A stretch of 64,000 bases of DNA from Crocinitomicaceae bacterium (GCA_044339115.1 JBIIWA010000015.1:4818-68817), one strand, 5' to 3'; numbered from the stretch's first letter, positions 43,208 through 61,227 are shown. Made by a program: numbers and translations. Notes: generated by a model not told the origin, from the sequence alone.

Positions 43208-43708
43208 ATGCTTAAACATCTTTCATTTAATGGAAACAAAACTGCTTACCTAATTCAAGGGCAAAAATTTGTACTGAATTTTCATTTCACTAGATGTCTA
43301 TTTGTATTGGTTTATTACAATAATGGAAAATACCCTGATGGCCGTTTTCATTTTAATAAATGTTGGAATAAAATTTCTTTAAGGTCCACTAAAGGAGCTT
43401 TTGAATCAATTACCAATGTTTATCATCCGGAGATTAAATTCATTACTTTTGGTTACGGGATAAAAATTCATCGTGTTGTCTTAAAGATTAATTTTTTCAA
43501 CACCATTGAACCAAATATTTCCATAAAAGATAGAAGTTTTACGAAAGTACCTGAAGTTAAAATCAGGGATCAAAAAGTGGTGCTGCATCCCATTGAATTT
43601 TCCAAAATGGACCAGAACCCTAAATTTCATGTTTTGGATGTTGAGTTGAACAATAAGTCTGAATTAAATTATAAGAATATTAAATTAATGAATTATGAGT
43701 CAAATTGA
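43208..43708 (+). CDS. hypothetical protein (first gene of the 43.2-49.5 kb operon)
   Basis: 166-aa ORF overlapping the next gene by 14 nt. No motif recognised. Confidence 0.5.
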   Translation: MLKHLSFNGNKTAYLIQGQKFVLNFHFTRCLFVLVYYNNGKYPDGRFHFNKCWNKISLRSTKGAFESITNVYHPEIKFITFGYGIKIHRVVLKINFFNTIEPNISIKDRSFTKVPEVKIRDQKVVLHPIEFSKMDQNPKFHVLDVELNNKSELNYKNIKLMNYESN

Positions 43709-44981: not shown

Positions 44982-44992
44982 TTTTCTAGACT

Positions 44993-46117
44993 TTGAAAAG
45001 ATTGATAATTGAATTATTAGGCTTGGAGGATCATATTTTCTCCTCTGTTTCAGCTAGTGAAAAATCTTTGTTTTCACTAGTTGTTATTTGTTTTATGGGG
45101 TTTTTCCTCCTTTCAATTTTCTCTAGTTTTTTCCTTGCTTTTCTTATCACAGGATCTTATTTGTTTTCTTTTACACTTGGCTTGTTTTTAATTTTTGTGG
45201 TCAATTTTGTTATTCGTTTTTCATTATTAATTATAAAAAGACCAGTTTCCAAGGTGATTGAAGAAAATGTGGTGCTTACTGAGACAACACCAATTGCAAT
45301 CCCCATTGCAACGCCTAATGGTTCTTCTAAACTTTCCAACTTGCTCAAAAAGCTTGATGTTAGATCCATATTTACATCTGGACAAGTTCCATGGTTTAAT
45401 TTTACATTGCGGATCTTTTTCTCAACTGTTTTTGCATTAATATTAATTTTTCCGCTAACTGCTTTATTCAATAAATCAAGAGTCAATACTTTATTAGGTG
45501 AGAAAAGAATAGAATTGTATAAAGAAAATTATAAGAGTATTCACGCTGACTTTAAACTTAAAGTCAGCCGTCAGGAGCACCAAATCAGTAAGGCAACTAT
45601 CAAATTGAAAATGATATCTAAATCTGCTCAAAAAAATAGTATTAGTTTTAAAAATCAACTAGTTGAAATAGCCAATCTAAAGCAACAATTGTTAGCAATT
45701 AAAAATGAATTTTATAGTGGTATTTCAAATCAAATGGAGCTGTATAGAAGTAATTTGAATGCTGCTTATTTTCCGATTTTTATATTTAGAAATTGCCTGC
45801 ATTTAAATGGATTTTGGCTAATAGCATTCGTTATTTTTACACTTGTTTTTTTGCCACAAATTCTATTGGTAAGATTGAAGAACCACCCTGACTTTAATTA
45901 TGCTAAACTTTCTAATGAATACTATCATGGAATAATACATGGTCAATATCAAAAATCAAAAACGTGGGCGGAAGGTTATTTATCATCTATGAATAATCAA
46001 TCAAAAGTTGTTCTCAATTCAAAATATGACGATCCTCCATACAACACAAAGAAAATAAAACAAATACGCAAAGGGATATCTGATCTTGAATTTTACAATC
46101 AATTAAAAATAAATTGA
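44993..46117 (+). CDS. membrane protein with the same TM/coiled-coil/TM layout (divergent DUF4407-like?)
   Basis: TTG start. N-terminal TM cluster ending VVNFVIRFSLLI (compare IFNLDRFIV upstream), a further TM, a coiled-coil-like region, and a late TM (FWLIAFVIFTLVFLPQILLV). Confidence 0.45.
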   Translation: MKRLIIELLGLEDHIFSSVSASEKSLFSLVVICFMGFFLLSIFSSFFLAFLITGSYLFSFTLGLFLIFVVNFVIRFSLLIIKRPVSKVIEENVVLTETTPIAIPIATPNGSSKLSNLLKKLDVRSIFTSGQVPWFNFTLRIFFSTVFALILIFPLTALFNKSRVNTLLGEKRIELYKENYKSIHADFKLKVSRQEHQISKATIKLKMISKSAQKNSISFKNQLVEIANLKQQLLAIKNEFYSGISNQMELYRSNLNAAYFPIFIFRNCLHLNGFWLIAFVIFTLVFLPQILLVRLKNHPDFNYAKLSNEYYHGIIHGQYQKSKTWAEGYLSSMNNQSKVVLNSKYDDPPYNTKKIKQIRKGISDLEFYNQLKIN

Positions 46118-47376
46118 GTAGTATAACCAACTATTATAAAGGGTATTTAAAAGCCCAATTTACAACTGTTTCCAAACAGAAAATTGGATCAGTCAATGAT
46201 TCGCAATCTAAAATTATTTTGGAGCCTCGATTTTATTGCATGAATTTTATACAGGTAAAAGAAAATGAAATACCTACTTCTGCTTTGTTATCCAATACGC
46301 CTCATCTTTATCAAACTGGCCGCTTTGATATTGAATGTTATCCAGGTGAGGACCAGAAAAATGGGATTCGTAGAACTGCTACTAATATCATCTTACTGTT
46401 AAATAAAAAAAATCCCGATAATTCAGAACTTTCGAATGAATTAAGCTCCTGGCATGAATATGACTTTAAAGAGTCGAGAGAGAAACATTACGATAGCTTT
46501 CTTTCTAATAGTCAGGTAATGCCTCATGGAAGAATTGAGGGTGACGCCTACTTTTTAGTTGAAGAATTAATTGATTTAGAGGGTAAAGTAATTGTAAATT
46601 CTACTTCAGTTACGGCAAGTGGAAGCATGTCACCTGGATGTCTCGGTTTTCTAAGTGGGATTACGCAAGCAATTTATGGATTTAATCTACGACTGAAGAA
46701 TTGGTTAAATAGCTTATTTGGGAAAGCTTTTGGATCCAGTTTAATTGGACAAGAACCAAATGGTTGTATGCCATCTATGTTACCAAGTGGATGCTCCGGG
46801 CCTGGCTGCTCTCGTTTTGGTTGTGGTTTTTTAAGTTTATTACTCGGATTACTTCTGTTGCTTTGGTTGTTAAAAAACTTATTATATGGGGATTACAAAA
46901 CATCTTCTTCCAACAAAGAACGGATCATTCATGATACTATTTATGTTAATAAAGAAAAGCAGGACACATTAACTTATATAGATGAAACAACGAATACCAC
47001 AGTAAAAATGTTGAGTCTTCCCAATGTTCAATTTGAAAAGAATAAAACGAAATTACTATCGAGTTCATTGAGTGACTTAAATTCATTGGCTGATTATTTA
47101 TTGCAGAATAAAGAAATTAATGCGGAAATTATTGGTCATACCGATAGTGATGGCGATGCAACAGCAAATAAAGAATTGTCTCAATCTAGAGCTGAAGAAG
47201 TAAAAAGGTATATAGTGAGTTTAGGAGTTCAAGAATCTAGGATTAAAGCAACTGGAAAAGGGGAGTCCGAACCTAGAACAGAGAACGAAACTGCAGAAGG
47301 TCGTGCAATGAATAGAAGGGTAGAGGTGAAGTTAACACAGTATAATTCAACTAAAACCACCAGAACTAAAAAGTAA
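46114..47376 (+). CDS. OmpA/MotB-type peptidoglycan-binding-domain protein with unknown N-terminal domain and one TM
   Basis: C-terminal VQFEKNKTKLL...IIGHTDSDGDATANKELSQSRAEEVKRYIV...GKGESEP...NRRVEVKL is a clear OmpA_C-like domain. TTGA start/stop overlap with the upstream gene. Confidence 0.75.
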   Translation: MSSITNYYKGYLKAQFTTVSKQKIGSVNDSQSKIILEPRFYCMNFIQVKENEIPTSALLSNTPHLYQTGRFDIECYPGEDQKNGIRRTATNIILLLNKKNPDNSELSNELSSWHEYDFKESREKHYDSFLSNSQVMPHGRIEGDAYFLVEELIDLEGKVIVNSTSVTASGSMSPGCLGFLSGITQAIYGFNLRLKNWLNSLFGKAFGSSLIGQEPNGCMPSMLPSGCSGPGCSRFGCGFLSLLLGLLLLLWLLKNLLYGDYKTSSSNKERIIHDTIYVNKEKQDTLTYIDETTNTTVKMLSLPNVQFEKNKTKLLSSSLSDLNSLADYLLQNKEINAEIIGHTDSDGDATANKELSQSRAEEVKRYIVSLGVQESRIKATGKGESEPRTENETAEGRAMNRRVEVKLTQYNSTKTTRTKK

Positions 47377-47381
47377 CTTTA

Positions 47382-49004
47382 ATGAGCAGCGAAACCAATG
47401 TTTTATCGGATGTGATTTATTGTAAAGGCAAGCTCTTAGGTTATTCTGAGCCTGGAAAGAGTTCGCAAACCAATGGTAAAATTACCTTTTCTGATTTTTC
47501 TTGGAATTACATGCATATTGATGAAGTTCAGGTGATTGATTATTACCATTCAGAAGCATTAAAAGTGGGTGATTTTTGGTATAGAAAAGTTTTAAAAGGA
47601 AAGAAAAATTGGTGGATGTCACGTCAGTTAATTTGGAAATTTCCTACCTTAAGTTGGCCTAAGCGACCAGAAATATTTATTCCGAGAGGTGATGCCGAAT
47701 TTTATAGTGGAACTTTATACGAAGTCATTATTTCAGATTTTGCAATTATTGATAAAAGGAGTTTTGCAAGTCCGTTAATTCATTTGTCGGCTGATATTTA
47801 TTTTCAAATAAAGAAACCCCAAGTCCCACTAATTCCGGAGAAAAAAGTTACTGTAATTCAAAATAATACTTCTATCATTAATCAAGCAGTAACTGTTGGT
47901 GATGGTCTAAATGTATTGCCCGGTGACATAAGTGCAACGGCAATCGCAAGTGAACCAGTGATTGATAGTGGCCAAAATAAGCTGGCAGTTCCTAATAAAT
48001 CGAGGTCGAAAATAATGAGTTTCCTCCTATGGATTGCTGCATTATTTATCGCTTGGAAGTTCTTCCCTTTATTGGTTTTACCTATATTTTTAATAGGTCT
48101 TTCAACCATTTTATTTAGGTTTTTTAGAAAATCATGCCTTCTTATATTATTTTCTCTTATGGTATTTATTGTGGGAGGCTTATTACTGCTCTATTTTTTA
48201 TCAAATAACTATAAAACACATATTCCTCAGGACAATCGAAAGGGAACAATTAAAACCAGCCCTCCTAAATCCCAAAAAAATAAAGATGGAACTACTGATT
48301 TCACTTCAGAAAAAGAAATTCATTGGTGGGATTTTTTCAATGCAGATTATTGGGCAAGATACAATACAAGTAACACTATATTTTATGAGAGCCAACAACG
48401 ACATCAAAATATAGTATCCAATGAAACTACCAATAATAGTATTCAATTTTTTACAGATGTATACGGCCAAATGAACAAAATGGACAATTACCATATTGAT
48501 TCGTTGACAGAAATTTTTATCGCACATGCCGCTAAGGCTAATTTAAGTCCAATTAGAACTGCTGAAATGGTATCGACATTCATTCAGGAAATTCCATATT
48601 ACCTTGTTCATGATTTGAGCTGTCAGGAAGCATGTAAGCAAGGGGGTTTTACAGCACAATACCATAGCGAAAATAAACCATGTTTACCAAACATTCCTGC
48701 CGGCGTTCAATCCCCGTATGAGTTTATTCATAATTTAAAAGGTGATTGTGATACGCGTAGTTTATTAGCCTATTCGATTCTTAAAAAAATGGGTATTTCT
48801 TGTTCAGTTTGGGTGAGTGAAGCCTATGGACATAGTATTTTAGGTGTCGGATTACCCATTGGAACAGGAACATTTAAGCAAATTAATGGCGTGAAGCATT
48901 ATGCCGTTGAATTAACAGCCAAAGGATTTAAAATTGGTATGATTTCCCCAGACCATACCAATACTGATAATTGGGATATTACACTTTTTTATAATAAATA
49001 CTAA
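47382..49004 (+). CDS. membrane protein with C-terminal transglutaminase-like (papain-fold Cys-His) domain
   Basis: GDCDTRSLLAYSILKKMGISCSVWV...YGHSILGV. The Cys codon at 48747-48749 and His codon at 48831-48833 follow the G.C...a.l...lr..GI....v....H spacing of transglutaminase-core proteins. 2-3 TM segments in the middle. Confidence 0.5.
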   Translation: MSSETNVLSDVIYCKGKLLGYSEPGKSSQTNGKITFSDFSWNYMHIDEVQVIDYYHSEALKVGDFWYRKVLKGKKNWWMSRQLIWKFPTLSWPKRPEIFIPRGDAEFYSGTLYEVIISDFAIIDKRSFASPLIHLSADIYFQIKKPQVPLIPEKKVTVIQNNTSIINQAVTVGDGLNVLPGDISATAIASEPVIDSGQNKLAVPNKSRSKIMSFLLWIAALFIAWKFFPLLVLPIFLIGLSTILFRFFRKSCLLILFSLMVFIVGGLLLLYFLSNNYKTHIPQDNRKGTIKTSPPKSQKNKDGTTDFTSEKEIHWWDFFNADYWARYNTSNTIFYESQQRHQNIVSNETTNNSIQFFTDVYGQMNKMDNYHIDSLTEIFIAHAAKANLSPIRTAEMVSTFIQEIPYYLVHDLSCQEACKQGGFTAQYHSENKPCLPNIPAGVQSPYEFIHNLKGDCDTRSLLAYSILKKMGISCSVWVSEAYGHSILGVGLPIGTGTFKQINGVKHYAVELTAKGFKIGMISPDHTNTDNWDITLFYNKY

Positions 49005-49016
49005 ACTTTAAACATT

Positions 49017-49526
49017 ATGAACGCAATCATTATTATCCAGTTACTCGTTGCTTTTGTTATCGGGATCTCATCATTATTTATCATTTACAGAGCAGTTAAC
49101 TTCGCCATGTCAAAGTACTTTGGCTTGGACGACAAGGACAATACCTCTTTCACGGTGTTTCAAATGGGAATCATTATCTCTGGTGCACTCATCTTGTCAA
49201 CCATTATTGATCCTGCTATTAATGCTATTCGTATATTAAATCCTCAAGGCAGCATTAATATTTCACAAGTACTTACCTCTTTAGCATATGTAGGTCTCTT
49301 TGCACTCATAGGGATCGTTTGCACACTTGTCGTTATTGCAGCTGCCTTGGTTACCATCTTCCAACTTACAAAAATCAATGAAATTGAGGAGATGAAAAAT
49401 AATAAAATCAATGCCTCTTTAATTATCGTTGCCTTAATTATTGGTTTGTCCTTGATTATCGATAATTACTGTGGACAAATGTGTGAAACCTTAATTCCTT
49501 ATCCGGAAGTATTACAAATTCGTTAA
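49017..49526 (+). CDS. small polytopic membrane protein (about 4 TM)
   Basis: Four hydrophobic stretches in 169 aa; possibly DUF350-like, not confirmed. Confidence 0.45.
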   Translation: MNAIIIIQLLVAFVIGISSLFIIYRAVNFAMSKYFGLDDKDNTSFTVFQMGIIISGALILSTIIDPAINAIRILNPQGSINISQVLTSLAYVGLFALIGIVCTLVVIAAALVTIFQLTKINEIEEMKNNKINASLIIVALIIGLSLIIDNYCGQMCETLIPYPEVLQIR

Positions 49527-49527
49527 G

Positions 49528-50076
49528 ATGATTTTTAAGAAAATTACTGACTCCGAAACAATTTTAACGGAACTGATGATTCCAAGTTATGCCAATTTTG
49601 GAGGAAAGGTACATGGTGGCATTATTTTGTCCTTAATGGATAAAGTCGCTTACGTTACTGCAGCTAAACACGCTAGTGCATATGTAGTTACCGTTTCAGT
49701 GGAAGGAGTTGAGTTTCTGAGCCCCATTGAAGTTGGAGACTTGGTTAGTTTAAAAGCTAGGGTAAATTACGTGGGTAAAACTTCCATGATTGTTGGAATT
49801 CGTGTGGAAGCTTTAAATCCTAAAACAGGAATTATAAAGCATACAAACTCCTGTTATTTCACAATGGTTGCAAAAGATGAGAATGGCCAAGTAACAGAAG
49901 TGCCAGGTCTGTACATCTCAGATGAAGAAAGTATTCGCCGTTTTGCCGAAGGGAAAGCACTTAAGTTACTCGTTAAGCAAAAACATCAGTTACTAAAGGA
50001 AAAATTCCATAAAATGAGCATTTCAGAGATTTTGAAAAGCGTAGAAGGGGAGAAGCTCACTTTCTCACCGGATTAA
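49528..50076 (+). CDS. hotdog-fold acyl-CoA thioesterase (YciA-like)
   Basis: ANFGGKVHGGIILSLMDKVAY...VTVSVEGVEFLSPIEVGDLV...GKTSMIVGIRVEA. Confidence 0.8.
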   Translation: MIFKKITDSETILTELMIPSYANFGGKVHGGIILSLMDKVAYVTAAKHASAYVVTVSVEGVEFLSPIEVGDLVSLKARVNYVGKTSMIVGIRVEALNPKTGIIKHTNSCYFTMVAKDENGQVTEVPGLYISDEESIRRFAEGKALKLLVKQKHQLLKEKFHKMSISEILKSVEGEKLTFSPD

Positions 50077-50139: not shown

Positions 50140-50484
50140 TTATTCTTTGGAGTTAAAAATATCCTTTAATTCATCTTGTAATGAAGATGGAATCGTGCTA
50201 TGATCTTTAAAGGTCATTTCAATTAAAGCCATGGTAAGTTTGGTAACATGAAGTTTGTGTTTGAGCTTTTTAAATACGATTACTAATCCTACACCAGTCA
50301 TAAGGAAAAGGACTATGCACCAAGCAATACCTATCCAAACGTAGGAAGCGATAACTAGACAAATCGACCCAAGAACTAGGCTAATCATCCAAATACGTAT
50401 GCGCAGAATGTCCATAACGTACTGATGGTATTCCTGATATTCTTCCGGTCTTTCTGCTTTGAATTGTTTGAGCGCTTCATTCAT
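50140..50484 (-). CDS. small membrane protein, hypothetical
   Basis: 114 aa with two central TM segments. Divergent from the 50551 operon. Confidence 0.45.
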   Translation of the reverse strand: MNEALKQFKAERPEEYQEYHQYVMDILRIRIWMISLVLGSICLVIASYVWIGIAWCIVLFLMTGVGLVIVFKKLKHKLHVTKLTMALIEMTFKDHSTIPSSLQDELKDIFNSKE

Positions 50485-50550: not shown

Positions 50551-53500
50551 ATGTCCCACCTCGAACCCACCTACCTTCGTTACATCTACGATGGTCTTCT
50601 CAAAGGAATCATCCATCCAGAAAATGCCGCAGAATTACCTGATGGCTTAATTGGTCTTTACGATGAAGCTTTCGATGAAAGAACTTCAGTCGTTGAACGC
50701 CAAAAACTGCTGCAGCGCTTTGCTATTTGGGCACTTTTGAAAAAAGAAGTAAGTGCAGCGTTTGTTGCTGAAGTATTGGGTGACACAGAAGATAAAATAC
50801 AAGATTTTATTTCTACATATAGTTCTTGGTTCAATAGCCCCGAAAGCGGCAAGTACCAGTTGTACCATGAGCGATTAAAAGTGTATTTATTGCAGAAGTT
50901 GAGTGATGGGGAAATTTATGGGCTTCACGAAAAACTTATTTCGCGATTAGAACAAGCCATCGAAGAGCAAAAAGCAGATGAATTTGAGTGGTATGGGTTG
51001 GAGTTTTTGGGTGAACTATATTTTTCCAATTTTGATGATAAACTATTTGAAATTTCCTTTAACAAAATATTCCAAGATAGACAAGTTTTTATTCTAGGTG
51101 ATTTTCGCATTGCATTTAAAAATCTTGAGTTATCAATACTGCTTGCAAAAAGCAGAAATGACAGAAAATCTATTGTTAAAGCAAGCACGGAAAAATTGAA
51201 AATTCGAAAACGATTTCATGAAAATTTCGACCTTCTTTATGGAAGTATCAACAACAATCACGCCATTACATCTAACTTACTTGGACACTATAATAATAAA
51301 ACAAAGGGATTAGTTTCAGTTTTACTTTTTCATGAGTTTTTTGAAGGGGACCTTCAGCTACACCCCTTAAAATCGTTGTTCATACATTTAATAATGGAGG
51401 ATTTATCATCCATAGAAGATGATCCAGTTAAACGTGGATGGTTATTATCTGTCCCTGAAATTGCTCAGGATCTTTATTTACATGAGTTAAATGAATTAGA
51501 TATTGATGACTTTCATTTCAGAAAGTTGATTCAGTTTATTACAAACGATGATGATTTAGAATACGAATTTAATTTTAATGAATCTATTTCTTTATTTAAC
51601 GATGACATAGAAACTTTAGAGGATAAAACAGAAGATTTCAATTTCGCGAATTATCTTGATGATTCAGATCAAGAGGTTCCTTCATTTCTCTCATTAGATA
51701 CGTCGGAGAACCCCTTTGAATCATTGAGTATGGATGATGAAAATGAATTTAAAGCATTTTTGGCAAGTATGGGTGATAACAATATCGATTTCGACTCTAA
51801 TAAAGTGGATATAGAAAGTAATTTAAGACCCATACATACTTTTGAAGAAAGAAAGTTGCAACTAATAAATGAATTAAATAACTCAAGTAATAAATTGCAA
51901 GATTTAATTCAATTTTCTAATGAGTTAATTCGACTAAAAGAAAATTTATTTTTAGCAGAAATAGGGCTTCAATTGCTACTATCGATTTCAGATTTTGTTA
52001 AATCAAGAGAATTTAATCATTTGTACCAGACAATTATTCAAGAGCTTACAGAACGAAAACAAGAAAGTAATCCTGTTGTTTTTTCTCATGAGGTAAAAGC
52101 ATGCTGCGAAGTATTATTAGAACAACATTTCTATACTGAAGCTTTGGAGTTAATTCCATTTATCTCACAGTCGGAAATGCGTGATGATTTATATTCTTCT
52201 GCATTGAATTCATCTTATGATTTTGATAAAGAAATTTATGCAAATGTTTTGAAGAATGCATGTCAAATACATAAATTAGACACATCTATTTACATCAATA
52301 AAGGCGAATTAATTCGTGAGTTTATTTTGCAATGCAAAACGAATGAATTAGATGATATTTTTTCAAGCTCAGATAGCTTCTTTCTAACTATGCTATGTGG
52401 AAGTATTATTGAAGACGATAGACTTTTCATCAGAATTACTGACGATTATAATCTACTAAAAGTATTGATTCCGGCATTTAAGAAGACTATGAATCATTCA
52501 TTACAGAGTTTTTCAGAAATTTTCGAGATTCATTGTAATTTACAGAATGGTGAAATACCACTTTCCGAAAAAGATTTCCAATCACTGTGTAAACAAATTA
52601 GTAAAGTTGACAATAAGGAAGAACTTAAAAAGCTCTATTCCTGCTTATATCTTTTCTCCCAAAATGAGCAAATAACAGCTTTCATCCTGAGTCAATTCAA
52701 TTCGATGGTAAAAGAAAATAAAAAGATCATTTCAGAAATATTACATGATAAAAATGAACATCTTTATTTATTCAAAAGCACACTCATTATTTGGAGGAGA
52801 TTAAATGCCGCACAAAAAGAAAAGTATAAAAGTATATTCAATGAAATATATAATCAAACCAAAAATAATGAATTGAATGAAAGAAGTGCCTGTATTTTTC
52901 TGATAAATAAAGAACTTGGGTTCGAAGATCATATTTTTAGTAAGCAAAAACTCGAGTTGTCGGTTTCAATATTACTTTTAAAAAATGGATATGTAGAGGA
53001 GGCAATTGAAATAGCTACACTTTGCAAAGATTCTAATCCTGCAATTATTCAGCTTGAATTTTGGATTGAACTACTTGAACATAAAGATGATTCCGAAAAT
53101 CTAGTTAATAATTTTATTAACTTCGTAAATGATAAATTTGAGGTCTTTTCTGAGGAAATATCAATAGAAGATCAATCTTTTGTCTATGTCCCCCTTTTTG
53201 CGAGAGCGTTGAACAAACTTTATGAATTCGATAAAGTGGTTGAATTTAAATCTTTATTTCAGATATTATTGAATCATATCGAATCACTTTCTGTTTCGCT
53301 AAATGAAAAGCGCAAACTTCTTTATGTTTTTTCATTTAGCATTAATTTCAATGTTTTTAAATATATACTTTGCCTGGCAAACAAAAACCAACAACTTTTG
53401 TTAGCGAGTTCTCTTTCTTTTTTAAAAGGATATCATAAGAATATTCAGGATAAGATTCTCGAGGAATTATGTGTTATTAGAGATGATGCCGATTTGGTTG

Positions 53501-53622
53501 AAAATGCATTACTCCACCTTTCTAAATGCGATCATTTTTATTCTGATTTATTTGATACTATGAATGAAACTAGTGAAATTTTTAATTTTGAGTATTGGCT
53601 GACTTTAAAATCTCCCAAATAA
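50551..53622 (+). CDS. large helical protein A: conserved 154-aa STAND-helical/winged-helix-like N-module plus a unique arm of about 870 aa
   Basis: The N-module is ~92% identical to that of the next gene (13 differences in 154 aa, hand count). ELPDGLIGLYDEAFDER and GKYQLYHERLKVYLLQKL resemble the post-P-loop helical/WH region of NACHT/STAND ATPases. The rest is helical and AT-rich-encoded, with an acidic segment at aa 331-422. Confidence 0.6.
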   Translation: MSHLEPTYLRYIYDGLLKGIIHPENAAELPDGLIGLYDEAFDERTSVVERQKLLQRFAIWALLKKEVSAAFVAEVLGDTEDKIQDFISTYSSWFNSPESGKYQLYHERLKVYLLQKLSDGEIYGLHEKLISRLEQAIEEQKADEFEWYGLEFLGELYFSNFDDKLFEISFNKIFQDRQVFILGDFRIAFKNLELSILLAKSRNDRKSIVKASTEKLKIRKRFHENFDLLYGSINNNHAITSNLLGHYNNKTKGLVSVLLFHEFFEGDLQLHPLKSLFIHLIMEDLSSIEDDPVKRGWLLSVPEIAQDLYLHELNELDIDDFHFRKLIQFITNDDDLEYEFNFNESISLFNDDIETLEDKTEDFNFANYLDDSDQEVPSFLSLDTSENPFESLSMDDENEFKAFLASMGDNNIDFDSNKVDIESNLRPIHTFEERKLQLINELNNSSNKLQDLIQFSNELIRLKENLFLAEIGLQLLLSISDFVKSREFNHLYQTIIQELTERKQESNPVVFSHEVKACCEVLLEQHFYTEALELIPFISQSEMRDDLYSSALNSSYDFDKEIYANVLKNACQIHKLDTSIYINKGELIREFILQCKTNELDDIFSSSDSFFLTMLCGSIIEDDRLFIRITDDYNLLKVLIPAFKKTMNHSLQSFSEIFEIHCNLQNGEIPLSEKDFQSLCKQISKVDNKEELKKLYSCLYLFSQNEQITAFILSQFNSMVKENKKIISEILHDKNEHLYLFKSTLIIWRRLNAAQKEKYKSIFNEIYNQTKNNELNERSACIFLINKELGFEDHIFSKQKLELSVSILLLKNGYVEEAIEIATLCKDSNPAIIQLEFWIELLEHKDDSENLVNNFINFVNDKFEVFSEEISIEDQSFVYVPLFARALNKLYEFDKVVEFKSLFQILLNHIESLSVSLNEKRKLLYVFSFSINFNVFKYILCLANKNQQLLLASSLSFLKGYHKNIQDKILEELCVIRDDADLVENALLHLSKCDHFYSDLFDTMNETSEIFNFEYWLTLKSPK

Positions 53623-53624
53623 CC

Positions 53625-56600
53625 ATGCCTCACCTCGAACCCACCTACCTCCGTTACATCTACGATGGTCTTCTGAAAGGAAGCATCCATCCGGAGAATG
53701 CTGCTGAATTGCCCGATGGCTTGATTGGTCTTTATGAAGAAGCCTTCGATGAGCGTACTTCGGTAGTGGAACGCCAAAAACTATTACAACGCTTTGCTAT
53801 TTGGGCTTTATTGAAAAAAGAAGTAAGTGCAGCGTTTGTAGCCGAGGTTTTGGGCGAAACCGAAGATGATATTCAGGATTTTATATCTACTTACAGCGCC
53901 TGGTTCAACAGCCCAGAAAGTGGTAAGTACCAATTGTACCATGAGCGCTTGAAGGTGTATTTGTTGCAGAAGTTGAGTGAGGGGGAGGTGCATGCGTTAC
54001 ACGAGAAACTAATTTTTCGATTAGAGCAAGCCATTGCAGAACAAAAAACGGATGAGTTTGAGTGGTATGGCTTGGAGTTTTTGGGAGGACATCTAACTTT
54101 AAGTTGTTTTCAGAAAAACACAAAAGAAAAGTACAACAGATTAATGAATTTCGCCTTGAATGATAATTATCATAATAGACAATTTGAATTTAGTTTTCAA
54201 TACCAATGGACATTTAACCTATTGCATTCTGTTCAGTATTTAACTATCGTTTTACGGAAAAGGGATGTTGAGTTAATTAATTTAAAATTTATAGAAGTCA
54301 ATGAGCGATTACAAGCCTCAATTCATGAGTTAATATATTTGGTTAGGGATGGGAATATTGAGATTACACTAGTTAGAATTAATTGTCTAATGTCTCAAAG
54401 TGAAAATGAAGTAAAAACTAAGCTAAGATTGATTTTATTGATTTTAACTGATATCTGTGTCAACAATAAAAGTATTAATTCAAATGAGCATTATCTAATT
54501 AGCGAACTGCTTCAAATCCTAGAGTTTGAATTTAAAAAATATAAAATTGATATTTTCGATTTAATCCCTCCCAATATATTTTTTCAAATCGTTTTGTTTT
54601 TGAAAGATTCAACTTTAGATTATAAATGCCTTCTTAATTTGGTTATATATGATTGGGGTTTTTCAGGAATTTCAAAAATTCTGACTCCAGATTTCATTAA
54701 GTTTTTCATTTCTTCAAATAAATATAGGTCTTTTGAAATCGAAGGGCTTTTTGTTGAAATAAGACAGATTGCATATATGAACCAAGTTGGGCTTGCCCAA
54801 ACAGGAATAGACTGTGCAATAATGGCTTTGTTAAACGAATATGCGCCTGAGAGATTAGCCGATTACTTGAGAACATCATTTAGAGATTTTTTAAATGCTG
54901 TTTCTTATGATTGGATTAAAACTTGGTTGAATAAGGTGATGTGCCATCTTCATGTTGATTTCATTGTTAAATATCTAGGAGGAGATTTATTATCGGATCA
55001 TATTCCAACTAATTTAGCTAATGAGATTGTTAGAATTGAAAAAAAATTAGAAATAATGGATTCAATTCTTTTAAAGGTTTATGAGTCTAACAGTAAATCA
55101 AACGAAATTAAAGAACTTATTGAGTATTCAGAAAATTTATTAGCGTATTACTTAGAAACAGAAACCTCGAAAATTCGTTCTGAAAAAGTAATGCATTTTT
55201 TTCAATTAAAATTGCTAATTGATACATTATCTAGAAAGGAAATTAGCAGCTTAATTAATCAAACAATTGACATCATAAAAGACGAATCGGATGACATATA
55301 CTTAAAACAAATAATAAGTACGCTTTACTTTTTTAAATTGTCGGAATATGCTCCGAGGTTTATTGCGTTATATGTTGATATAAAGTATGCCAAAAGCAGT
55401 GCGTTCTTAAATGGGCTATTAATGAATAATCAAATAATTGCGATTAATCAAATTGAAAATGTAGATGAGAATTATCTAGATGGTTTGATTTATAAGTTAA
55501 ATTATGATATTTGGAGAAATCAGTTATCTAATACTTCAATTTTATTTTTAGAAAATTTAAAATGGTTTATTTCACAAATCAAATCGGATAATTCAGTCAC
55601 CAATATAAACGATGACTATTGGCAAATTATTCTGGGAATCATTTTTAATTCTGATATTCTTGAATGTTACATTGACACCTATTTAAGTGAAGCTTTACGA
55701 TTTTCTCCTGATTTAATTAAAAAGAGATTTTATCATTTTGTAGCTAAGCCAAAACTAATGAAAAGGCATTCAGGTGTCGAATTGGATGTCATTAGAATGA
55801 TTGATTTGGAGATTGAATTATTTAAAAAGACTCAAACAGGACAAATTGAAAAGTTATATGATTCACTTCTTAGCACTTTTTGTGAGGCCCTTATTGAAGT
55901 AAATTGGTCCATGAAAAATAAAGATGTTTATCGCTTTGCTAAATTAAAATTGGAGAAAAGTGAGATTCAAGTTGCAATTAATTGTTTATCCGAAATTGAT
56001 GTTTCTTCTCAATGTTTTGTGGAATTAGTTTTTGATATTTCTTTAAAACTTTTCCAAGGTAATGAAGAAATAGATTTTGCATTGGAAATCTTACAATATG
56101 TAAAACATCATTTTGAATATAAAGAGTATGATAACGGAGAATCCTACAGCTACTATCATATTGATCATGGTAAACAATATGTGGATTTAGTTGATAATTT
56201 ATTGTTTAAAATTCTTTCTTTTCATCAATTAAACATAAAGCAATTTCAAGAATTATTGTTCAATGTTGGAGTAATAGATGACAATTACAACTTAACAACT
56301 AAGAATTTCCATTCTCCATCATTTATTAGAAACATCATCGATAAAGAGGTAAAAACATTCATTTGTGATTTATTAAATCCATCAAATACAAGTGGCCATA
56401 ATAATCTATTTTCTGTTAAACTTGGAATTAAAAGTCTTCTTGAATATGAATTAAACGAGATTGAAATTCAAAATATATTAAATGAATTAATTGAATATCT
56501 TAACCAATCATACGAACAAGTTGAAATTAATCTCGATTTCAGTAAATTTTTTAATAATATGGGTTTGTCAAATATTAGTTTCTTTAATGTTATTCATAAG

Positions 56601-57200
56601 CACAACATTATTAATCTAAAAGTGGCATTAAAATCTTTAGGGATTGCAAAACGCCTACCTATTTATTCATTCTGTGAAATCCTCATTACTAAATCAATTA
56701 TTGATAAAACAGAATCTTCACTAATAACTATTTTTCCCGAATTTGAAAACAAGTCTGAACTTACCGAATATTTACATGAAATATGTTTAAAGATAAAGCA
56801 AAGTAGAAATGTTTATTTGAAAGATTTTTATCATTTCACTTTCCTTACAGAAAATACGAATAGGGATGATTTAATTAAAGAATTATTTCAAAAACGAAAA
56901 TTTAAACCTAAAAAACATTTGGTTCAACTATTCTATTTGGATGATTTTACAAGAAGAAAATTTCTTGTAAGTTTTTACAATAACATTTCAAATTTTTATA
57001 ATTCCGAAATTAATTGGTATTTAGTATATCATCTTTGTAGGTCTGATTATAATTTATTGAAGCACTTTAATTCAGAACGGATAAAAATACTTCTAATGCA
57101 GGGAAAAATACCAAAAAAACTAAGTAATTTGGTGACAGATAAAAAGGAATATCTTTCAGAGATAAACAAGTTAAACAATTTAAGTGTAGACTTAATATGA
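53625..57200 (+). CDS. large helical protein B: the same 154-aa N-module plus a different arm of about 1040 aa
   Basis: ATG at 53625 (MPHLEPTYLRYIYDG) is chosen by homology with MSHLEPTYLRYIYDG of gene A; it lies 2 nt after A's stop. The ORF-track start at 53595 would overlap A. Confidence 0.6.
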   Translation: MPHLEPTYLRYIYDGLLKGSIHPENAAELPDGLIGLYEEAFDERTSVVERQKLLQRFAIWALLKKEVSAAFVAEVLGETEDDIQDFISTYSAWFNSPESGKYQLYHERLKVYLLQKLSEGEVHALHEKLIFRLEQAIAEQKTDEFEWYGLEFLGGHLTLSCFQKNTKEKYNRLMNFALNDNYHNRQFEFSFQYQWTFNLLHSVQYLTIVLRKRDVELINLKFIEVNERLQASIHELIYLVRDGNIEITLVRINCLMSQSENEVKTKLRLILLILTDICVNNKSINSNEHYLISELLQILEFEFKKYKIDIFDLIPPNIFFQIVLFLKDSTLDYKCLLNLVIYDWGFSGISKILTPDFIKFFISSNKYRSFEIEGLFVEIRQIAYMNQVGLAQTGIDCAIMALLNEYAPERLADYLRTSFRDFLNAVSYDWIKTWLNKVMCHLHVDFIVKYLGGDLLSDHIPTNLANEIVRIEKKLEIMDSILLKVYESNSKSNEIKELIEYSENLLAYYLETETSKIRSEKVMHFFQLKLLIDTLSRKEISSLINQTIDIIKDESDDIYLKQIISTLYFFKLSEYAPRFIALYVDIKYAKSSAFLNGLLMNNQIIAINQIENVDENYLDGLIYKLNYDIWRNQLSNTSILFLENLKWFISQIKSDNSVTNINDDYWQIILGIIFNSDILECYIDTYLSEALRFSPDLIKKRFYHFVAKPKLMKRHSGVELDVIRMIDLEIELFKKTQTGQIEKLYDSLLSTFCEALIEVNWSMKNKDVYRFAKLKLEKSEIQVAINCLSEIDVSSQCFVELVFDISLKLFQGNEEIDFALEILQYVKHHFEYKEYDNGESYSYYHIDHGKQYVDLVDNLLFKILSFHQLNIKQFQELLFNVGVIDDNYNLTTKNFHSPSFIRNIIDKEVKTFICDLLNPSNTSGHNNLFSVKLGIKSLLEYELNEIEIQNILNELIEYLNQSYEQVEINLDFSKFFNNMGLSNISFFNVIHKHNIINLKVALKSLGIAKRLPIYSFCEILITKSIIDKTESSLITIFPEFENKSELTEYLHEICLKIKQSRNVYLKDFYHFTFLTENTNRDDLIKELFQKRKFKPKKHLVQLFYLDDFTRRKFLVSFYNNISNFYNSEINWYLVYHLCRSDYNLLKHFNSERIKILLMQGKIPKKLSNLVTDKKEYLSEINKLNNLSVDLI

Positions 57201-57907
57201 ATAAAGAAACCCACCCATTTTTAGAACTAGGAAAAGTGCCAAATGCTACCAAACTAATACTCGGTTCATTTCCAGTATATTCCATAACGCTTCCCGATAG
57301 TGAAGAAAAAAATAGAATTCGTAAAAGTGACGGATCCGTTCAATTCTTTTATGGCAGTTGTAGAAGTAGTTTTTGGGGACTTTATCATTTGTACATAGAC
57401 AATGGTTTGGAAATTCCAATTACTCCAAAAGAGGCATTGTCAAGCCTTGTCAAAAATCAAATTGCAATTTCAGATGTAATTTCGGAGTGTGAAAGGAATG
57501 GAAAAAGTGCTTTGGATAAAGATCTGAAAAAGCGTATTTATAACATTCAAATGATGAATGAGTATTTGGATTCAGGTATCACCAAAATTCTGTGTACATC
57601 AAAAGGTGTAATGGATATGATTCATGATCAGATTGCAAAAAAGTCCAAAGAATTTATTTTTCAGGAAGATGAATCTTATAAATGGCAAACTGAGGTAATG
57701 TCAAAACTGAAAGGAAGTGAGATTCAAATAAAAAAGTTGATTTGCAGACAATATGTTTATAAGGGTAAAACAATTCGATTAATTTCAATTCCTTCGCCTG
57801 GCTCACCACAAAGACAATTAAAACAATTTGGATTTACAGGTGATGATTGGAGAGAGTATGCAGATAAGTATTTTGAATTTTCATTTAAATGGCTAAAAAT
57901 AGATTAA
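57197..57907 (+). CDS. uracil-DNA-glycosylase-superfamily protein, family-6 (hypoxanthine/deoxyinosine DNA glycosylase)-like
   Basis: THPF...KLILGSFPVYS...FFYGSCRSSFWGL...IAISDVISECER.G.SALDKDL...ILCTSKGV parallels the remembered HDG pattern (HPF, LILGsFPs, YYghp.NrFW, iaLwDVi.sC...gS.D). ATGA overlap with gene B. Confidence 0.5.
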   Translation: MNKETHPFLELGKVPNATKLILGSFPVYSITLPDSEEKNRIRKSDGSVQFFYGSCRSSFWGLYHLYIDNGLEIPITPKEALSSLVKNQIAISDVISECERNGKSALDKDLKKRIYNIQMMNEYLDSGITKILCTSKGVMDMIHDQIAKKSKEFIFQEDESYKWQTEVMSKLKGSEIQIKKLICRQYVYKGKTIRLISIPSPGSPQRQLKQFGFTGDDWREYADKYFEFSFKWLKID

Positions 57908-57910
57908 GTT

Positions 57911-58207
57911 ATGGATCATAAAACAAAATGTAATTGTTGCGACTGTGTTTGGCAACGTGTTGTTAAAAATCAAGGTGCAGTTCTTAGGTTGAAATTTCAA
58001 AAGCAAATTTCATATAAAATTGAAAAGAATATGATCGTTTGGTTATCAATGGAACCCACCCAGCGAGTACTTTTTAGGCAAAGACGAATTAGTATTTGTA
58101 ATTCAATTCCATCTCGTCAAAACAATTTTGGACCCTCTAGCTATCCTGGTACAGCAACATCTTACAAATGGGCATTATTAAATGATGATCGAATTTGGCT
58201 ATTATGA
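57911..58207 (+). CDS. small hypothetical protein with N-terminal Cys cluster
   Basis: The 98-aa ORF exactly fills the gap between flanking genes (3-nt gap upstream, ATGA-type overlap downstream). Carries CNCCDC at aa 7-12. Confidence 0.4.
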   Translation: MDHKTKCNCCDCVWQRVVKNQGAVLRLKFQKQISYKIEKNMIVWLSMEPTQRVLFRQRRISICNSIPSRQNNFGPSSYPGTATSYKWALLNDDRIWLL

Positions 58208-59736
58208 AATTCAAAGAAATTTCTAACCTCCCAACACGCCTCACCGAAAAAATCAAGGCAGTCCAATCCGAAGAAGACGCCTACGCAGCGGATGAACTCG
58301 TTGAATTAGGCGAAGAAATTCTTTCGCAGTTGGCTGCAATGGGAATTGCCGTTTACTTGCAACAGGCGAAACAAAAAGATGTGTTTAATGACTTTTTGAT
58401 TTCTTTGTTTTTGTCGAATGGACATGCCTATAATGCGGGTCCCTTGTATCGCTGGGCGGCAAATATGATCAAAGATGCGGAGGGAGATCAAGCATTAGAA
58501 TTACGTCCATTTTTCTGGCAAACGAAGGAAGGAAAAGAAGTGTTAAATGAGGAAATTCATCATTTGGCAAGTTTGCGGAATGCGGTAATGCATGGTTTCT
58601 TTGTCCTGCCGCCTGAACGTAACCGTGAAGAGGCTCAAAAGATGGAAGTGATACTCGAGTCTATGGTAAAGGCAAACTTATTTCAAAGTTCCTTTGGAAG
58701 TTTCCATTTCATCGACCAACAAGGATTCAATGGACATTGGAACATACAGAATATACAAACTTGGAACCTGTTCAATCAAGAATTTCCATTTGGAAAGTTA
58801 GCGATTCGAGTGGCACATGAATATGCCGATGATTTCCGAAAAGAAGAAGATCAATTTGCCTCGGAGAAAGGCAAGTCCTTGTCAGATGTGGAAGTAGAAG
58901 TAAATAACTTACTCGATAAAGGGAAAGGTGCTTTAGTCTGCTGGTATCAAGCAGAAAGTAATCAAGGTTTGGCTTCCTACCGAACCGCTATTCAATCTTT
59001 GGACAAAGACAAGTACTTACCGATTTACTATGCCTTACATGCGAATGGAGCAACATTTACAGCTTCTTTTCTGGAACAGGAGATCGGTAAAGCATTGTAT
59101 CAACTAACTTCAGATGAAAAAGCGCTAAAAGAACCTTTCAAATACCTAAAAGCACAAAAAGGAAAATTATCAAAGAAACCAATTATCGTCTTGCATGATA
59201 TTCATATTGCGTTGTTTAGCCCGAATCATTTAACCAATTTATTTAATACGCTATATGATTTAGATGTTCCGATTGTAGCTACATCCTTGCATTATCCTTA
59301 CCTCAAACGTTTCTTTAATATGCAATTGACTTTGTCAGAGAAACATACAAATTCATTGGAACAAGTGAATCTTTCTTTAGTCAATTATGTACGTTTTAAA
59401 GGTCCAAGTCCGGACCAAGAAACGGAAAAAGAGAATTTTGAGATCCTGAAAAAAATAGTGCACGAGATACATGAGCAATTGGAGAAAAACCAACGTGTAG
59501 TTGCTCGTCGTTTTGCAGATGATAATAACTATCCCATTGAATTTGTTCATGAGGCATTTGGAATATTAAGTCCATTTTACCAAGCAGAAAAAGAGGCCTT
59601 TAAAGAAGACGAGGTGGATGAATTGTATGGTTTTCCTAAATCCATTGAAGAGAGCTCACGAATATTCTTAACTTTAGGTAGACGTGATGTGAAACTAGAG
59701 TACCAGCATAAAGTATTGTCAAATGCCAAACAATAA
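58195..59736 (+). CDS. Rx4H (HEPN-like) N-domain plus degenerate P-loop NTPase-like domain (probably an inactive paralogue of the next gene)
   Basis: LRNAVMH at 58576-58593 (aa 128-133). LLDKGKGALVCWYQAESNQGLAS occupies the place of Walker A, PIIVLHDIHIAL the place of Walker B, and VPIVATSLHYP is sensor-1-like. An alternative ATG at 58204 gives an ATGA overlap. Confidence 0.5.
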   Translation: MAIMKFKEISNLPTRLTEKIKAVQSEEDAYAADELVELGEEILSQLAAMGIAVYLQQAKQKDVFNDFLISLFLSNGHAYNAGPLYRWAANMIKDAEGDQALELRPFFWQTKEGKEVLNEEIHHLASLRNAVMHGFFVLPPERNREEAQKMEVILESMVKANLFQSSFGSFHFIDQQGFNGHWNIQNIQTWNLFNQEFPFGKLAIRVAHEYADDFRKEEDQFASEKGKSLSDVEVEVNNLLDKGKGALVCWYQAESNQGLASYRTAIQSLDKDKYLPIYYALHANGATFTASFLEQEIGKALYQLTSDEKALKEPFKYLKAQKGKLSKKPIIVLHDIHIALFSPNHLTNLFNTLYDLDVPIVATSLHYPYLKRFFNMQLTLSEKHTNSLEQVNLSLVNYVRFKGPSPDQETEKENFEILKKIVHEIHEQLEKNQRVVARRFADDNNYPIEFVHEAFGILSPFYQAEKEAFKEDEVDELYGFPKSIEESSRIFLTLGRRDVKLEYQHKVLSNAKQ

Positions 59737-59739
59737 TCT

Positions 59740-61227
59740 ATGAATCCAATCGATAAATACCACGAGCGTTTTCTTCAACTTAAAAAGGAGAAAGAAATTA
59801 AACCAGATTCAGAGGTTATTTTGAAATTGATTGAATCAGATCCAGCAGGTTTGAACAATTATTACATGGCTGCTTTGGGCATGAGCACACTGCTTCTTCG
59901 TTTCGGAGCTGTCATTCAATTGTGTCAAAAGTTTGAGAACTTGGATGAACATGGAGATGCACTTTTCCTCAAACAAATTCTTGATAATTTGAGAGAGAGT
60001 TTGCCTTCCGATACCAGTTGGAAAAATTTATGGGCAATGTCCACCGAGGATGAAGTGTGGCTGAAGCCAGTCCTGAAGCCCAAAAATGGTGAGGCCTTAT
60101 TAAATCGTTTTATCACATTTCGTAATCGGTATGTTCATCAATTAATTAGAATTGAAGAAGCTTTTTTACCGCAATTGATTACCAGTATTACCTTATTTGA
60201 TGAAATGGCGGAATTAACTTCGCTGTTTAAAGATGGTGACTTAGTTTGTTTAGATGGAAAATATGTTTGGAACCAAAACGATAAGATTATTTCCTTACAT
60301 CCATATGTTCAAGCAGGTAAACAAGGTGATGATCCCTATATTTTTCAAGGCTTGTATGACAATAAATCACAGGCACATCTACTCAATTTACATCTGGGAG
60401 ACGAAGATAAGCAACCCGCAAATGATCACCTAGAACCGAATTTCACTCCAATTAGAGAGGCGATTAGGGGAGGAGCGGGGCAAGTCTTCGACCATAGCGA
60501 GCGAATTGCGTACTACCAATCTTGTTTTGTTGGAAGAGATCGTGAAAAAGCAGCCATCCTTGATTTTTGTAACGGTTCAGGGGAACAAAATCTACTCTGT
60601 GTGAAATCACCTGCTGGAATGGGTAAGGGAGCACTTATCGCTGATGTCATCGAACAGCTAAAAAAAGATAAAACACAGGTTCTGTATCACTTTTGTGGTG
60701 CTGGAATCCAAAATAGCCTTCATGCTACACTGTATCATTTAATAATTCAGGGGAAAGAGTATTGGAATCGTTCCGATGAATCCTTAGACCGTAAACTGAA
60801 TCGCTTGCCCTCAAAATTCATAGATGTGATTCATTTGTTTCAGTCTTTATTGAGTAAAGAAAACCTGAAATTAAATGCTAAAAACGAATCTGGCAATCTG
60901 GTCATCATCATTGACGGCCTAGACGAGGCACAAGTCGCTTATTCGCAACTTAAAATTTCAGATTGGTTTTATTCCTATAACGAGAAGGAGGAACCTGAAG
61001 AAGATTGGAGAAGTGCATCTAATATCCGATGGATTTTCACCTACCGGTGCGATGACGATGGAACTGAATCGTTTTTTCAATTTCCAAAAATGAAGGAATT
61101 AGCAGAAATTCAAATCCTTCAACCCTTAACTGGTCTTTCTCCTGAAGCGGTGGATGAAGCGTTCAAAGATTTTGTGGTTTCTAAGGAATTTAAAGAAATG
61201 GTGATTGAAAAAGCAGAAATAATATAA
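59740..61227 (+). CDS. Rx4H (HEPN-like) N-domain plus STAND-type P-loop NTPase core, lacking winged-helix and repeat regions
   Basis: FRNRYVH at 60121-60138 (aa 128-133). Walker A-like SPAGMGKGA at 60607-60633. Walker B LVIIIDGLDEA at 60898-60930. IRWIFTYRCDD is sensor-1-like. ILQPLTGLSPEAVDEAF follows, and the protein stops 25 aa later. Confidence 0.65.
   Translation: MNPIDKYHERFLQLKKEKEIKPDSEVILKLIESDPAGLNNYYMAALGMSTLLLRFGAVIQLCQKFENLDEHGDALFLKQILDNLRESLPSDTSWKNLWAMSTEDEVWLKPVLKPKNGEALLNRFITFRNRYVHQLIRIEEAFLPQLITSITLFDEMAELTSLFKDGDLVCLDGKYVWNQNDKIISLHPYVQAGKQGDDPYIFQGLYDNKSQAHLLNLHLGDEDKQPANDHLEPNFTPIREAIRGGAGQVFDHSERIAYYQSCFVGRDREKAAILDFCNGSGEQNLLCVKSPAGMGKGALIADVIEQLKKDKTQVLYHFCGAGIQNSLHATLYHLIIQGKEYWNRSDESLDRKLNRLPSKFIDVIHLFQSLLSKENLKLNAKNESGNLVIIIDGLDEAQVAYSQLKISDWFYSYNEKEEPEEDWRSASNIRWIFTYRCDDDGTESFFQFPKMKELAEIQILQPLTGLSPEAVDEAFKDFVVSKEFKEMVIEKAEII

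Follow-up and report, generated by a model that had tools for sequence, protein, structure and literature searches.

A shared N-terminal module on two otherwise unrelated giant genes suggests a possible split STAND-type conflict system in a Crocinitomicaceae bacterium

A 64,000-nt stretch of DNA from a Crocinitomicaceae bacterium (GCA_044339115.1 JBIIWA010000015.1:4818-68817; hereafter the window) carries two adjacent giant genes, A and B, that begin with nearly the same 154-residue module and continue into long arms of unrelated sequence. Downstream on the same strand are genes for a 513-aa protein and a 495-aa protein, the latter a truncated STAND ATPase; together we call these two the chassis. 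The segment at 50551-61227 is read here as a split STAND (NLR-like) conflict system of several subunits, most probably directed against phages, and we put the probability of this reading at about 0.6. Loci and proteins from other genomes are cited by their L and P numbers where they have to be told apart.

RESULTS

A conserved module heads two otherwise unrelated genes

An ungapped alignment of the two module copies contains 75 mismatches in 462 nt (83.8% identity) and zero indels. Sixty-five codons differ, 52 of them synonymously only and 13 with a change of amino acid (91.6% amino acid identity), and 61 of the 75 mismatches fall at third codon positions. These counts reproduce exactly those of the initial annotation of this DNA, which had also proposed an old duplication under strong purifying selection. 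Nonsynonymous divergence (dN) is ~0.05 and synonymous divergence (dS) is 0.6–1.2, giving dN/dS ratios of 0.04 (NG86), 0.05 (LWL85), and 0.08 (YN00); a ratio near 1, which would have spoken against that proposal, was not seen with any of the three estimators. The pair is thus supported as an old duplicate kept by strong purifying selection. Outside the repeat, identity is at the random level (33% over 60 nt upstream and 300 nt downstream), and tblastn, blastn, and a repeat finder located no third copy of the module in the window. GC content is ~39%–43% in the module compared with 25%–33% in the arms (27%–32% in arm A).

Past the module, BLASTP of whole A against whole B found no match, nor did BLASTP of the 111 aa around the junction. 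Small alignments of arm A and arm B compared with hhalign gave a probability of 0.3%, and a local iterative hidden Markov model search left the two arms unconnected. The earlier claim that the tails are unrelated therefore stands, with no homology along the full length. The claim that similarity ends abruptly after EFLG (residue 154) holds for BLASTP and for nucleotides but not at the level of family profiles, where weak homology runs to about residue 200 in both proteins. In arm B, the ~190 residues that follow the module match the commonest arm family (hhalign probability 95%, E = 3e-8), and the same proximal stretch of arm A has only weak colinear matches to that family, which are non-significant (E 0.0025–0.09). 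There is no profile-profile match further on, and the distal ~650–850 residues of A and B are unrelated at the detection limit. The layout is that of a constant module (residues 1–154), a semi-conserved neck (to ~350), and a hypervariable distal part.

The module is widespread and is joined to many arms

One genome per species was scanned for related loci. The module was found at 28 loci in metagenome-assembled genomes of freshwater and marine Bacteroidota, including Crocinitomicaceae, Fluviicola, Flavobacteriales, Chitinophagaceae, and Polaribacter. It forms the head of an open reading frame (ORF) at every surveyed locus, in complete proteins of 590–1581 aa and in one to three tandem genes per locus. 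When 1.84 billion cluster representatives (clusters at 50% identity) were searched with a module profile, at least 531 clusters matched, 357 of them at E below 1e-30. Among the best 150 of the 531, which are proteins of 219–1885 aa, the module is confined to the first ~215 residues and is never internal. The expectation that other genomes would hold further arms on the same module was thereby borne out. The module was not found in GenBank phages or IMG/VR, leaving a phage origin unsupported, and tblastn against plasmids returned nothing useful.

Neither arm of the window has a match in Pfam, PADLOC, NCBIfam, PHROGs, or PDB sequences. Among 163 full-length family members, the only relatives of arm A are P0199 (96% identical) and P0239 (~40%), and arm B groups only with P0181 (78%–79%). 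No TPR or other Pfam domain was identified in six further arms, and P0253 has a single weak TPR match. A single-sequence AlphaFold2 (AF2) model of arm B is all-helical, with an unreliable predicted local distance difference test (pLDDT) score of 40. In protein sequence, arms evolve faster than modules (dN/dS 0.22–0.46 versus 0.04–0.21). Third-position GC content (GC3) is 0.19–0.25 in the arms compared with 0.29–0.49 in the module, 513-aa, and ATPase genes of the same loci (the window and L003–L024), which is consistent with a separate, horizontally circulating pool of arms or with low expression.

Module similarity is uncoupled from arm similarity. Among 279 module pairs with at least 90% identity, the arms could be aligned over half their length in only 24. 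The clearest case involves gene A itself, which shares an arm with P0199 at 95.9% identity on a module that is 88.3% identical, with 18 mismatches in residues 1–131 and 2 in residues 132–448 (Fisher p = 5e-4, module versus rest). Because the most constrained part of the protein is here the most diverged part, a recombination junction is placed near residues 131–170. In four locus pairs with a common arm type, module dS (0.8–2.1) follows ATPase dS (0.7 to saturated), and arm dS is 0.26–1.2, which is 2–3 times below module dS. Across loci, module identity and ATPase identity are correlated (Spearman 0.81). The history of the locus is mosaic, and arms have probably been swapped by recombination at or near the module, in agreement with the initial proposal of one module fused to alternative arms.

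These comparisons bear on whether A and B could be ordinary tandem paralogues whose head is just the most constrained part and whose tails diverged in place, with no exchange and no docking role. Such an origin would fit the all-helical appearance of both tails (in a low-confidence model), the joining of 130 of the 163 arms by single-linkage BLAST, and the proximal match of arm B to the main arm family with its weak colinear echo in arm A. However, at a module dS of only 0.6–1.2, neutral tails of the same age should keep BLAST similarity over ~900 aa, and none was found. The arms are thus not merely diverged copies, since at a module dS of ~1 even neutrally evolving arms should still be recognizable. 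The sharp change in divergence near residues 131–170 of gene A, the uncoupling of module identity from arm relatedness, and an arm dS below module dS in pairs with a common arm also speak against in-place divergence, which we consider decidedly unlikely.

Between the window and L002, the flanks are conserved and the arms are not. The left flanks are 93% identical up to 86 nt into module A, and the right flank is 90% identical; the arms between them are without nucleotide similarity, and the 513-aa and 495-aa genes are only 79% identical. Module stumps mark past recombination or deletion events at L002 (29 aa), L025 (240 nt), and L029/L030 (a 173-aa module-only gene). Stumps of this kind, and the fact that the modules form 462-nt direct repeats, could also be expected of a cassette or phase-variation system, in which one gene is expressed, the other is a silent donor, and the module serves as the recombination site. 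We regard this as extremely improbable: A and B are both complete ORFs, each starting with its own ATG, and only 2 nt separate them within an operon-like run on one strand; the locus contains no inverted repeats or recombinase; and the 16% nucleotide divergence of the two copies (dS ~1) speaks against ongoing exchange between them.

Concerted evolution of modules within a locus was considered and rejected, as several modules have a closer match at another locus than in their partner at the same locus. A diversity-generating retroelement, a shufflon, and inversion were likewise rejected; no further or inverted repeats were present, and no tRNA or integrase gene lies near the locus in the window. 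Promoter and terminator scans of the locus were uninformative.

The chassis is also mosaic, and not only the arms. Between L003 and L006, dS is 0.48 for the 513-aa gene and 1.86 for the ATPase gene, and the chassis dS values of L022 versus L024 differ as well.

At L029/L030 (6932-15234), a 1020-aa gene, presumed to be an arm gene by its size and position, precedes the 173-aa module-only ORF; three small ORFs come next, and the chassis genes (511 aa and 496 aa) come last. This locus is bordered by a phage-type integrase gene, ~5 kb past the ATPase gene. Module-only products could be decay remnants or competitors for the ATPase.

A truncated STAND ATPase accompanies the module

Single-copy homologs of the 513-aa and 495-aa genes lie beside the module genes at nearly all loci with sufficient flanking DNA. 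At four distant loci (L021, L022, L024, and L026), the order is 513-aa gene, 495-aa gene, module-arm gene; the module gene begins 4 nt past the ATPase stop codon in the first three, and its start overlaps that stop (ATGA) in L026. This adjacency looks like gene fission. In the lineage of the window, the arms come first, followed by the optional 236-aa and 98-aa genes and then by the 513-aa and 495-aa genes.

The 495-aa protein matches NPHP3_N (E = 8e-13, 49.3 bits, cut-off 24.8) and AAA_16 (E = 7e-8, 33.5 bits, cut-off 32.6) in Pfam, with sub-threshold matches to NACHT, ATPase_2, and nSTAND1 and a weak one to nSTAND6. All 21 aligned members of its family match NPHP3_N and share the invariant stretches AGMGKGAL (Walker A), DGLDEA (Walker B), and TYR. 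The protein thus has a STAND-type nucleotide-binding domain with Walker A, Walker B, and sensor-1 Arg. The chain ends ~59 aa after the sensor-1 Arg, leaving room for about two helices but not for a winged helix. Its 120 closest homologs are 451–506 aa long and 67%–100% identical, but the search returned only proteins little longer than the query (up to 506 aa for the 495-aa query, 275 aa for a 161-aa query, and 398 aa for a 227-aa query), and hit lengths therefore do not reflect biology. The 161-aa query accordingly missed the full-length proteins of the window and their 1000-aa relatives, and an apparent break of assemblies past the module was an artifact of the same length limit. Searches of PDB profiles with the 495-aa and the 513-aa protein gave no match.

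An Rx4H motif is invariant in the N-terminal parts of both chassis proteins (F-R-N-x-x-V-H in the 495-aa and L-R-N-x-V-M-H in the 513-aa protein). HEPN_LA2681 was matched by 6 of 13 members of the 513-aa family (best E = 8.5e-4, under the cut-off), HepT-like and RiboL-PSP-HEPN by 3 of 21 members of the 495-aa family (E ~0.02–0.03), and one JGI homolog of the 495-aa protein is labeled DUF86. Both N-terminal domains are accordingly described here as HEPN-like. The 513-aa protein also contains P-loop-like (KGKGAL) and Walker-B-like (VIVLHDIH) stretches that, read by eye, may be eroded ATPase motifs; no NTPase family match was found in it. An hhalign comparison of the 513-aa and 495-aa proteins aligned the HEPN-like motif region only (E = 0.06), which does not establish paralogy.

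The module is predicted to supply the part that the ATPase lacks

An AF2 model of the module, built on a 29-sequence alignment (pLDDT 77), has N-terminal helices at residues 6–17 and 33–40, three helices and a beta-wing at residues 47–104 followed by a helix at 107–115, and two long helices over residues 119–159 at its end. The unit at residues 47–115 is predicted to be a winged helix. Foldseek against the PDB returned no significant match (E 0.02–0.1). The best TM-scores and lowest root-mean-square deviations (rmsd) were those of Apaf-1 (0.46), CED-4 (0.44, 4.0 Å), and Avs3 (0.43, 4.6 Å), for which rmsd was 4.0–7.8 Å overall and E was 0.045–0.076. Invariant residues are concentrated in the first helix (P6, Y8, L9, R10, and D14) and past the wing (G100, L104, Y105, H106, and R108).

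In STAND proteins, the nucleotide-binding domain is followed by a Pro-containing helix in helical domain 1 and by an MHD-type His after the wing, and this winged-helix His contacts the bound nucleotide. A one-piece STAND-TPR protein encoded at L025, whose nucleotide-binding domain aligns to that of the 495-aa protein at E = 9e-5, has the motif NPLVLR 84 aa past its sensor-1 Arg and LFH 110 aa further on. The split system has 65 and 100 aa at the corresponding places when the count is continued from one gene into the other. The module is probably the helical domain 1/winged-helix part that is absent from the adjacent STAND ATPase. From the models and the motif spacing, we infer that the break in the chain falls midway through helical domain 1, a bundle of four helices, and that the module holds the second half of this domain together with the winged-helix lock.

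On this basis, a mechanism can be proposed. The 495-aa protein would contribute a HEPN-like effector domain and the nucleotide-binding domain and would end two helices into helical domain 1; the module would contribute the Pro-containing third helix of that domain and the winged helix with its nucleotide-contacting His. Each giant protein would dock on a single ATPase subunit and complete the fold in trans, placing His106 on the nucleotide, and its long helical tail would act as a ligand sensor, so that two or three tandem genes would give several alternative sensors on one chassis. Ligand binding by the distal arm would release winged-helix autoinhibition, followed by nucleotide exchange and oligomerization, and the HEPN-like domains of the 495-aa and 513-aa proteins would then meet as an RNase and cause growth arrest or abortive infection. 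The low dN/dS of the module would be explained by the need for every arm to fit one partner. The module may also be the conserved stretch at which incoming arms recombine. More tentatively, we suggest that the head doubles as a protein plug and a DNA landing pad, with a population-wide pool of hundreds of arms traded between strains.

Evidence against the split-receptor interpretation and competing roles for the module

Several results weigh against a split STAND receptor. The module has no match in Pfam at E values up to 10, and neither does an artificial fusion of ATPase and module; the PDB profile search returned nothing for the module or for the concatenated ATPase and module, and hhalign of the module against the L025 STAND protein also returned nothing. 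The correspondence of Pro and His motifs with the L025 protein was made by eye. No one-polypeptide relative of ATPase plus module was found, in a search whose hits covered at most 52% of the chimeric query and were all proteins of near-query length. The arm genes of the window and of its close relatives do not directly follow the ATPase gene but precede it, with up to three genes in between. The HEPN assignments of both partners are below family thresholds, and Gly occupies the position in Walker A (residues 292–299; GKG and not GK[ST]) where a Mg2+-binding Ser/Thr is usual, so the ATPase may bind nucleotide and yet not hydrolyze it; its Walker B is intact. PADLOC reported no known defense system at the locus. 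With regard to arm exchange, the low GC3 of the arms (0.19–0.25 versus 0.3–0.5) partly confounds the contrast between arm and module dS and somewhat inflates it, and the correlation between module and ATPase identity could reflect shared vertical descent alone. The module also has no match in NCBIfam, PADLOC, or PHROGs.

Foldseek adds a further point on the same side, as MarR-type DNA-binding winged helices lead its list by E-value (MarR/ArsR, E 0.02–0.09). The module could accordingly be a DNA-binding winged-helix-turn-helix domain, and the giant proteins could be regulators or DNA-associated factors unrelated to the ATPase, as the top rank of MarR, ArsR/SmtB, and other winged-helix repressors would suggest. 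Their superpositions, however, have an rmsd of 15–20 Å compared with 4–8 Å for Apaf-1, CED-4, and Avs3, and the invariant P6, LR, and LYH fall outside the recognition-helix position. The module is strictly linked to a truncated STAND ATPase, and hundreds of unrelated tails of ~900 aa would be an unusual feature in a regulator. Regulators of the MarR/ArsR type are usually small dimeric proteins, unlike a module with 1000-aa tails and a STAND partner. We therefore judge a DNA-binding role to be very unlikely.

A heterotypic adaptor is the other role to be weighed. The module might bind some other partner (the 513-aa protein, HEPN-like domains, the membrane, or DNA) and not complete the ATPase fold. 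Several sensors would be served in that case too, but with the module outside the nucleotide-binding and oligomerization unit. Its co-occurrence fits the 513-aa gene as well as the 495-aa gene, the arm genes of the window do not adjoin the ATPase gene, the Foldseek E-values are weak, and sequence comparisons did not connect the module with the helical or winged-helix regions of STAND proteins. Against this, the ATPase subunit is without exactly those parts that are predicted in the module, it is the ATPase gene, not the 513-aa gene, that the module gene adjoins or overlaps in distant lineages, and the order and spacing of motifs match a one-piece STAND protein. Homotypic docking is ruled out because the 513-aa protein contains nothing that corresponds to the module (an hhalign comparison of the module with the 513-aa family gave no match). 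An adaptor of this kind is unlikely in our assessment. The initial annotation had described the module as a common docking or adaptor domain fused to alternative specificity domains. A docking domain fits the conserved neighbors and the predicted resemblance of the module to the parts that the ATPase is without, and that role would be retained; a free-standing adaptor would not, as the module is probably one half of a split nucleotide-binding and oligomerization module.

Genomic neighborhood of the locus

The features of the locus are listed in Table 1. The optional 236-aa gene has a weak uracil-DNA-glycosylase-like match (TIGR04274, E = 2e-5, under the cut-off) and homologs of 72%–78% identity at L003, L006, L016, and L018; L002 has a weak 27% match only.

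Table 1. Genes and modules of the locus, in window coordinates
Feature	Coordinates	Strand	Length or residues	Description
Gene A	50551-53622	+	1023 aa	
Module copy A	50551-51012	+	aa 1-154 of gene A	Basis: identity, dN/dS, invariant residues, AF2, Foldseek
Arm A	51013-53622	+	aa 155-1023	Orphan, low GC; proposed sensor 1
Gene B	53625-57200	+	1191 aa	ATG start, 2 nt past stop of A
Module copy B	53625-54086	+	aa 1-154 of gene B	
Arm B	54087-57200	+	aa 155-1191	Proposed sensor 2; first ~190 residues related to commonest arm family, rest orphan
Accessory gene, optional	57197-57907	+	236 aa	Start overlaps gene B stop; weak uracil-DNA-glycosylase-like match
Accessory gene, optional	57911-58207	+	98 aa	Cys-rich N-terminus; in L006, L016, L018; no family match
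Partner 1	58204-59736	+	510-513 aa	HEPN-like N-terminal domain, invariant R125-N-x-V-M-H130
Partner 2	59740-61227	+	495 aa	HEPN-like N-terminus (F-R128-N-x-x-V-H133) and STAND nucleotide-binding domain, aa ~263-456
114-aa gene	50140-50484	-	114 aa	Divergent, directly upstream; homologs in L001 (96%), L002 (92%), L006 (33%); no family match

The locus is a hotspot, with genes of defense-island type inside the system or in its place. At L002 (9112-10000), the 29-aa module stump is followed by an AbiGi-like gene and then by a full module. An AAA_15/AAA_21 ATPase gene and a RhuM/Fic gene lie between the arms and the chassis at L016 (14257-16867). At L025 (10001-15190), the system is lost except for the 240-nt module remnant, and a DUF2971 gene and the one-piece STAND-TPR gene are found in its place.

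Directly upstream in the window (43208-50076) is a run of seven genes coding for a 166-aa ORF, a DUF4407 protein, a 374-aa ORF, an OmpA-domain protein, a 540-aa ORF, a DUF350-like membrane protein, and a 4HBT thioesterase. The run is syntenic in L002, L003, L016, L017, and L025 and partly so in L007, and it may be a separate membrane-associated system or a plain conserved neighborhood. Further upstream (41304-41612, minus strand) lies a small nucleotidyltransferase gene (NTP_transf_2/Polbeta, E = 1e-14) of the type that pairs with HEPN in MNT-HEPN toxin-antitoxin systems. On the other side (63017-63925, minus strand), a 302-aa ORF with weak PADLOC CorA-like matches (E = 3e-7) also flanks L003, L004, and L025; it is probably an ordinary Mg2+ transporter-type protein outside the system.

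DISCUSSION

Each of the NLR-like (Avs/STAND) receptors known from bacteria is a single giant protein with one sensor. The locus described here suggests one chassis with several exchangeable sensor subunits and a receptor cut inside its regulatory domain, a design that would parallel animal NAIP-NLRC4 and plant sensor-helper networks. Were this the case, it would provide a natural system in which the NLR winged-helix lock is supplied in trans, would show sensor repertoires diversifying by recombination, and would offer a scaffold for experimental sensor swaps. It would also mean that surveys taking the residues after the NTPase domain miss a receptor class common in aquatic Bacteroidota. If the arms do plug into a common ATPase, a cell would obtain several receptors for the cost of one chassis, and specificity could be changed by a single recombination event.

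The architecture predicted here resembles that of the Avs proteins (Gao et al.; Kibby et al.; Lee et al. 2026, PMC13581612), in which a nuclease-type effector at the N-terminus is combined with a STAND nucleotide-binding domain, a winged helix, and a long sensor of helical type. Gene surroundings of the defense type are also common to both, and Avs3 is among the structural neighbors of the module. Avs is a single polypeptide, whereas here a break in the chain is predicted within helical domain 1, the proposed sensor is encoded separately in one to three copies, and one ATPase lineage is accompanied by hundreds of arm clusters. ATPase, module, and arm were not found on one polypeptide, the genes being separate even where adjacent. 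PADLOC returned no match to Avs; its hits were weak (E above 2e-3) and confined to the P-loop region, with none to the arms. In a 2026 census of 589 STAND clades, most defense clades were dominated by one sensor type (PMC13581612). That analysis was limited to proteins in which 400 aa or more follow the NTPase domain (PMC13581612), and a split architecture would therefore be missed by that census.

A two-gene nSTAND2 system, in which one NTPase is eroded and carries HEPN or GT4 and for which a hetero-oligomer is predicted (Kaur, Iyer, Burroughs, Aravind 2021, PMC8195603), forms an operon of two NTPase-type proteins that parallels the 513-aa/495-aa pair. It differs in that nSTAND2 is not among the Pfam matches of the 495-aa family, both proteins here have HEPN-like motifs, and the paper describes no separate multi-copy sensor subunit. 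HEPN-STAND-TPR fusions and LA2681-type HEPN domains in operons with TPR proteins were catalogued in 2013 (Anantharaman et al., PMC3710099). Their parts (HEPN RNase, STAND ATPase, and helical repeats) are those proposed for the present system, and HEPN_LA2681 is the best family hit of the 513-aa protein, although this match is below threshold. They are mostly one-chain proteins, unlike the present system, and no head common to alternative repeat proteins was described among them. In an incomplete literature search, we found no description of a split receptor with a common head on multiple exchangeable sensors.

The division into constant and variable parts also recalls toxin arrays. No toxin, immunity, or secretion domains or signals were seen in A, B, or their neighbors, and the locus does not group with toxin arrays by content. 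Polymorphic-toxin, Rhs, and contact-dependent inhibition proteins have a long N-terminal constant part, a short variable toxin tip, and an immunity gene. The lengths here are 154 aa for the constant part and ~900 aa for the variable part. The present locus has in common with toxin arrays, and with the shuffling of type I restriction specificity subunits, the combination of constant and variable regions, tandem copies, and recombination at the constant part.

The system is best filed as STAND/NLR-like: it has the nucleotide-binding domain of that class, and the predicted winged-helix, HEPN, and sensor parts are distributed with it over more than one polypeptide. In NAIP-NLRC4 inflammasomes and plant sensor-helper NLRs, several sensors feed one executor and each partner is a complete NLR. 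The likeness to these is one of logic only, with no claim of homology; the sensors proposed here are without a nucleotide-binding domain of their own and would share a single one.

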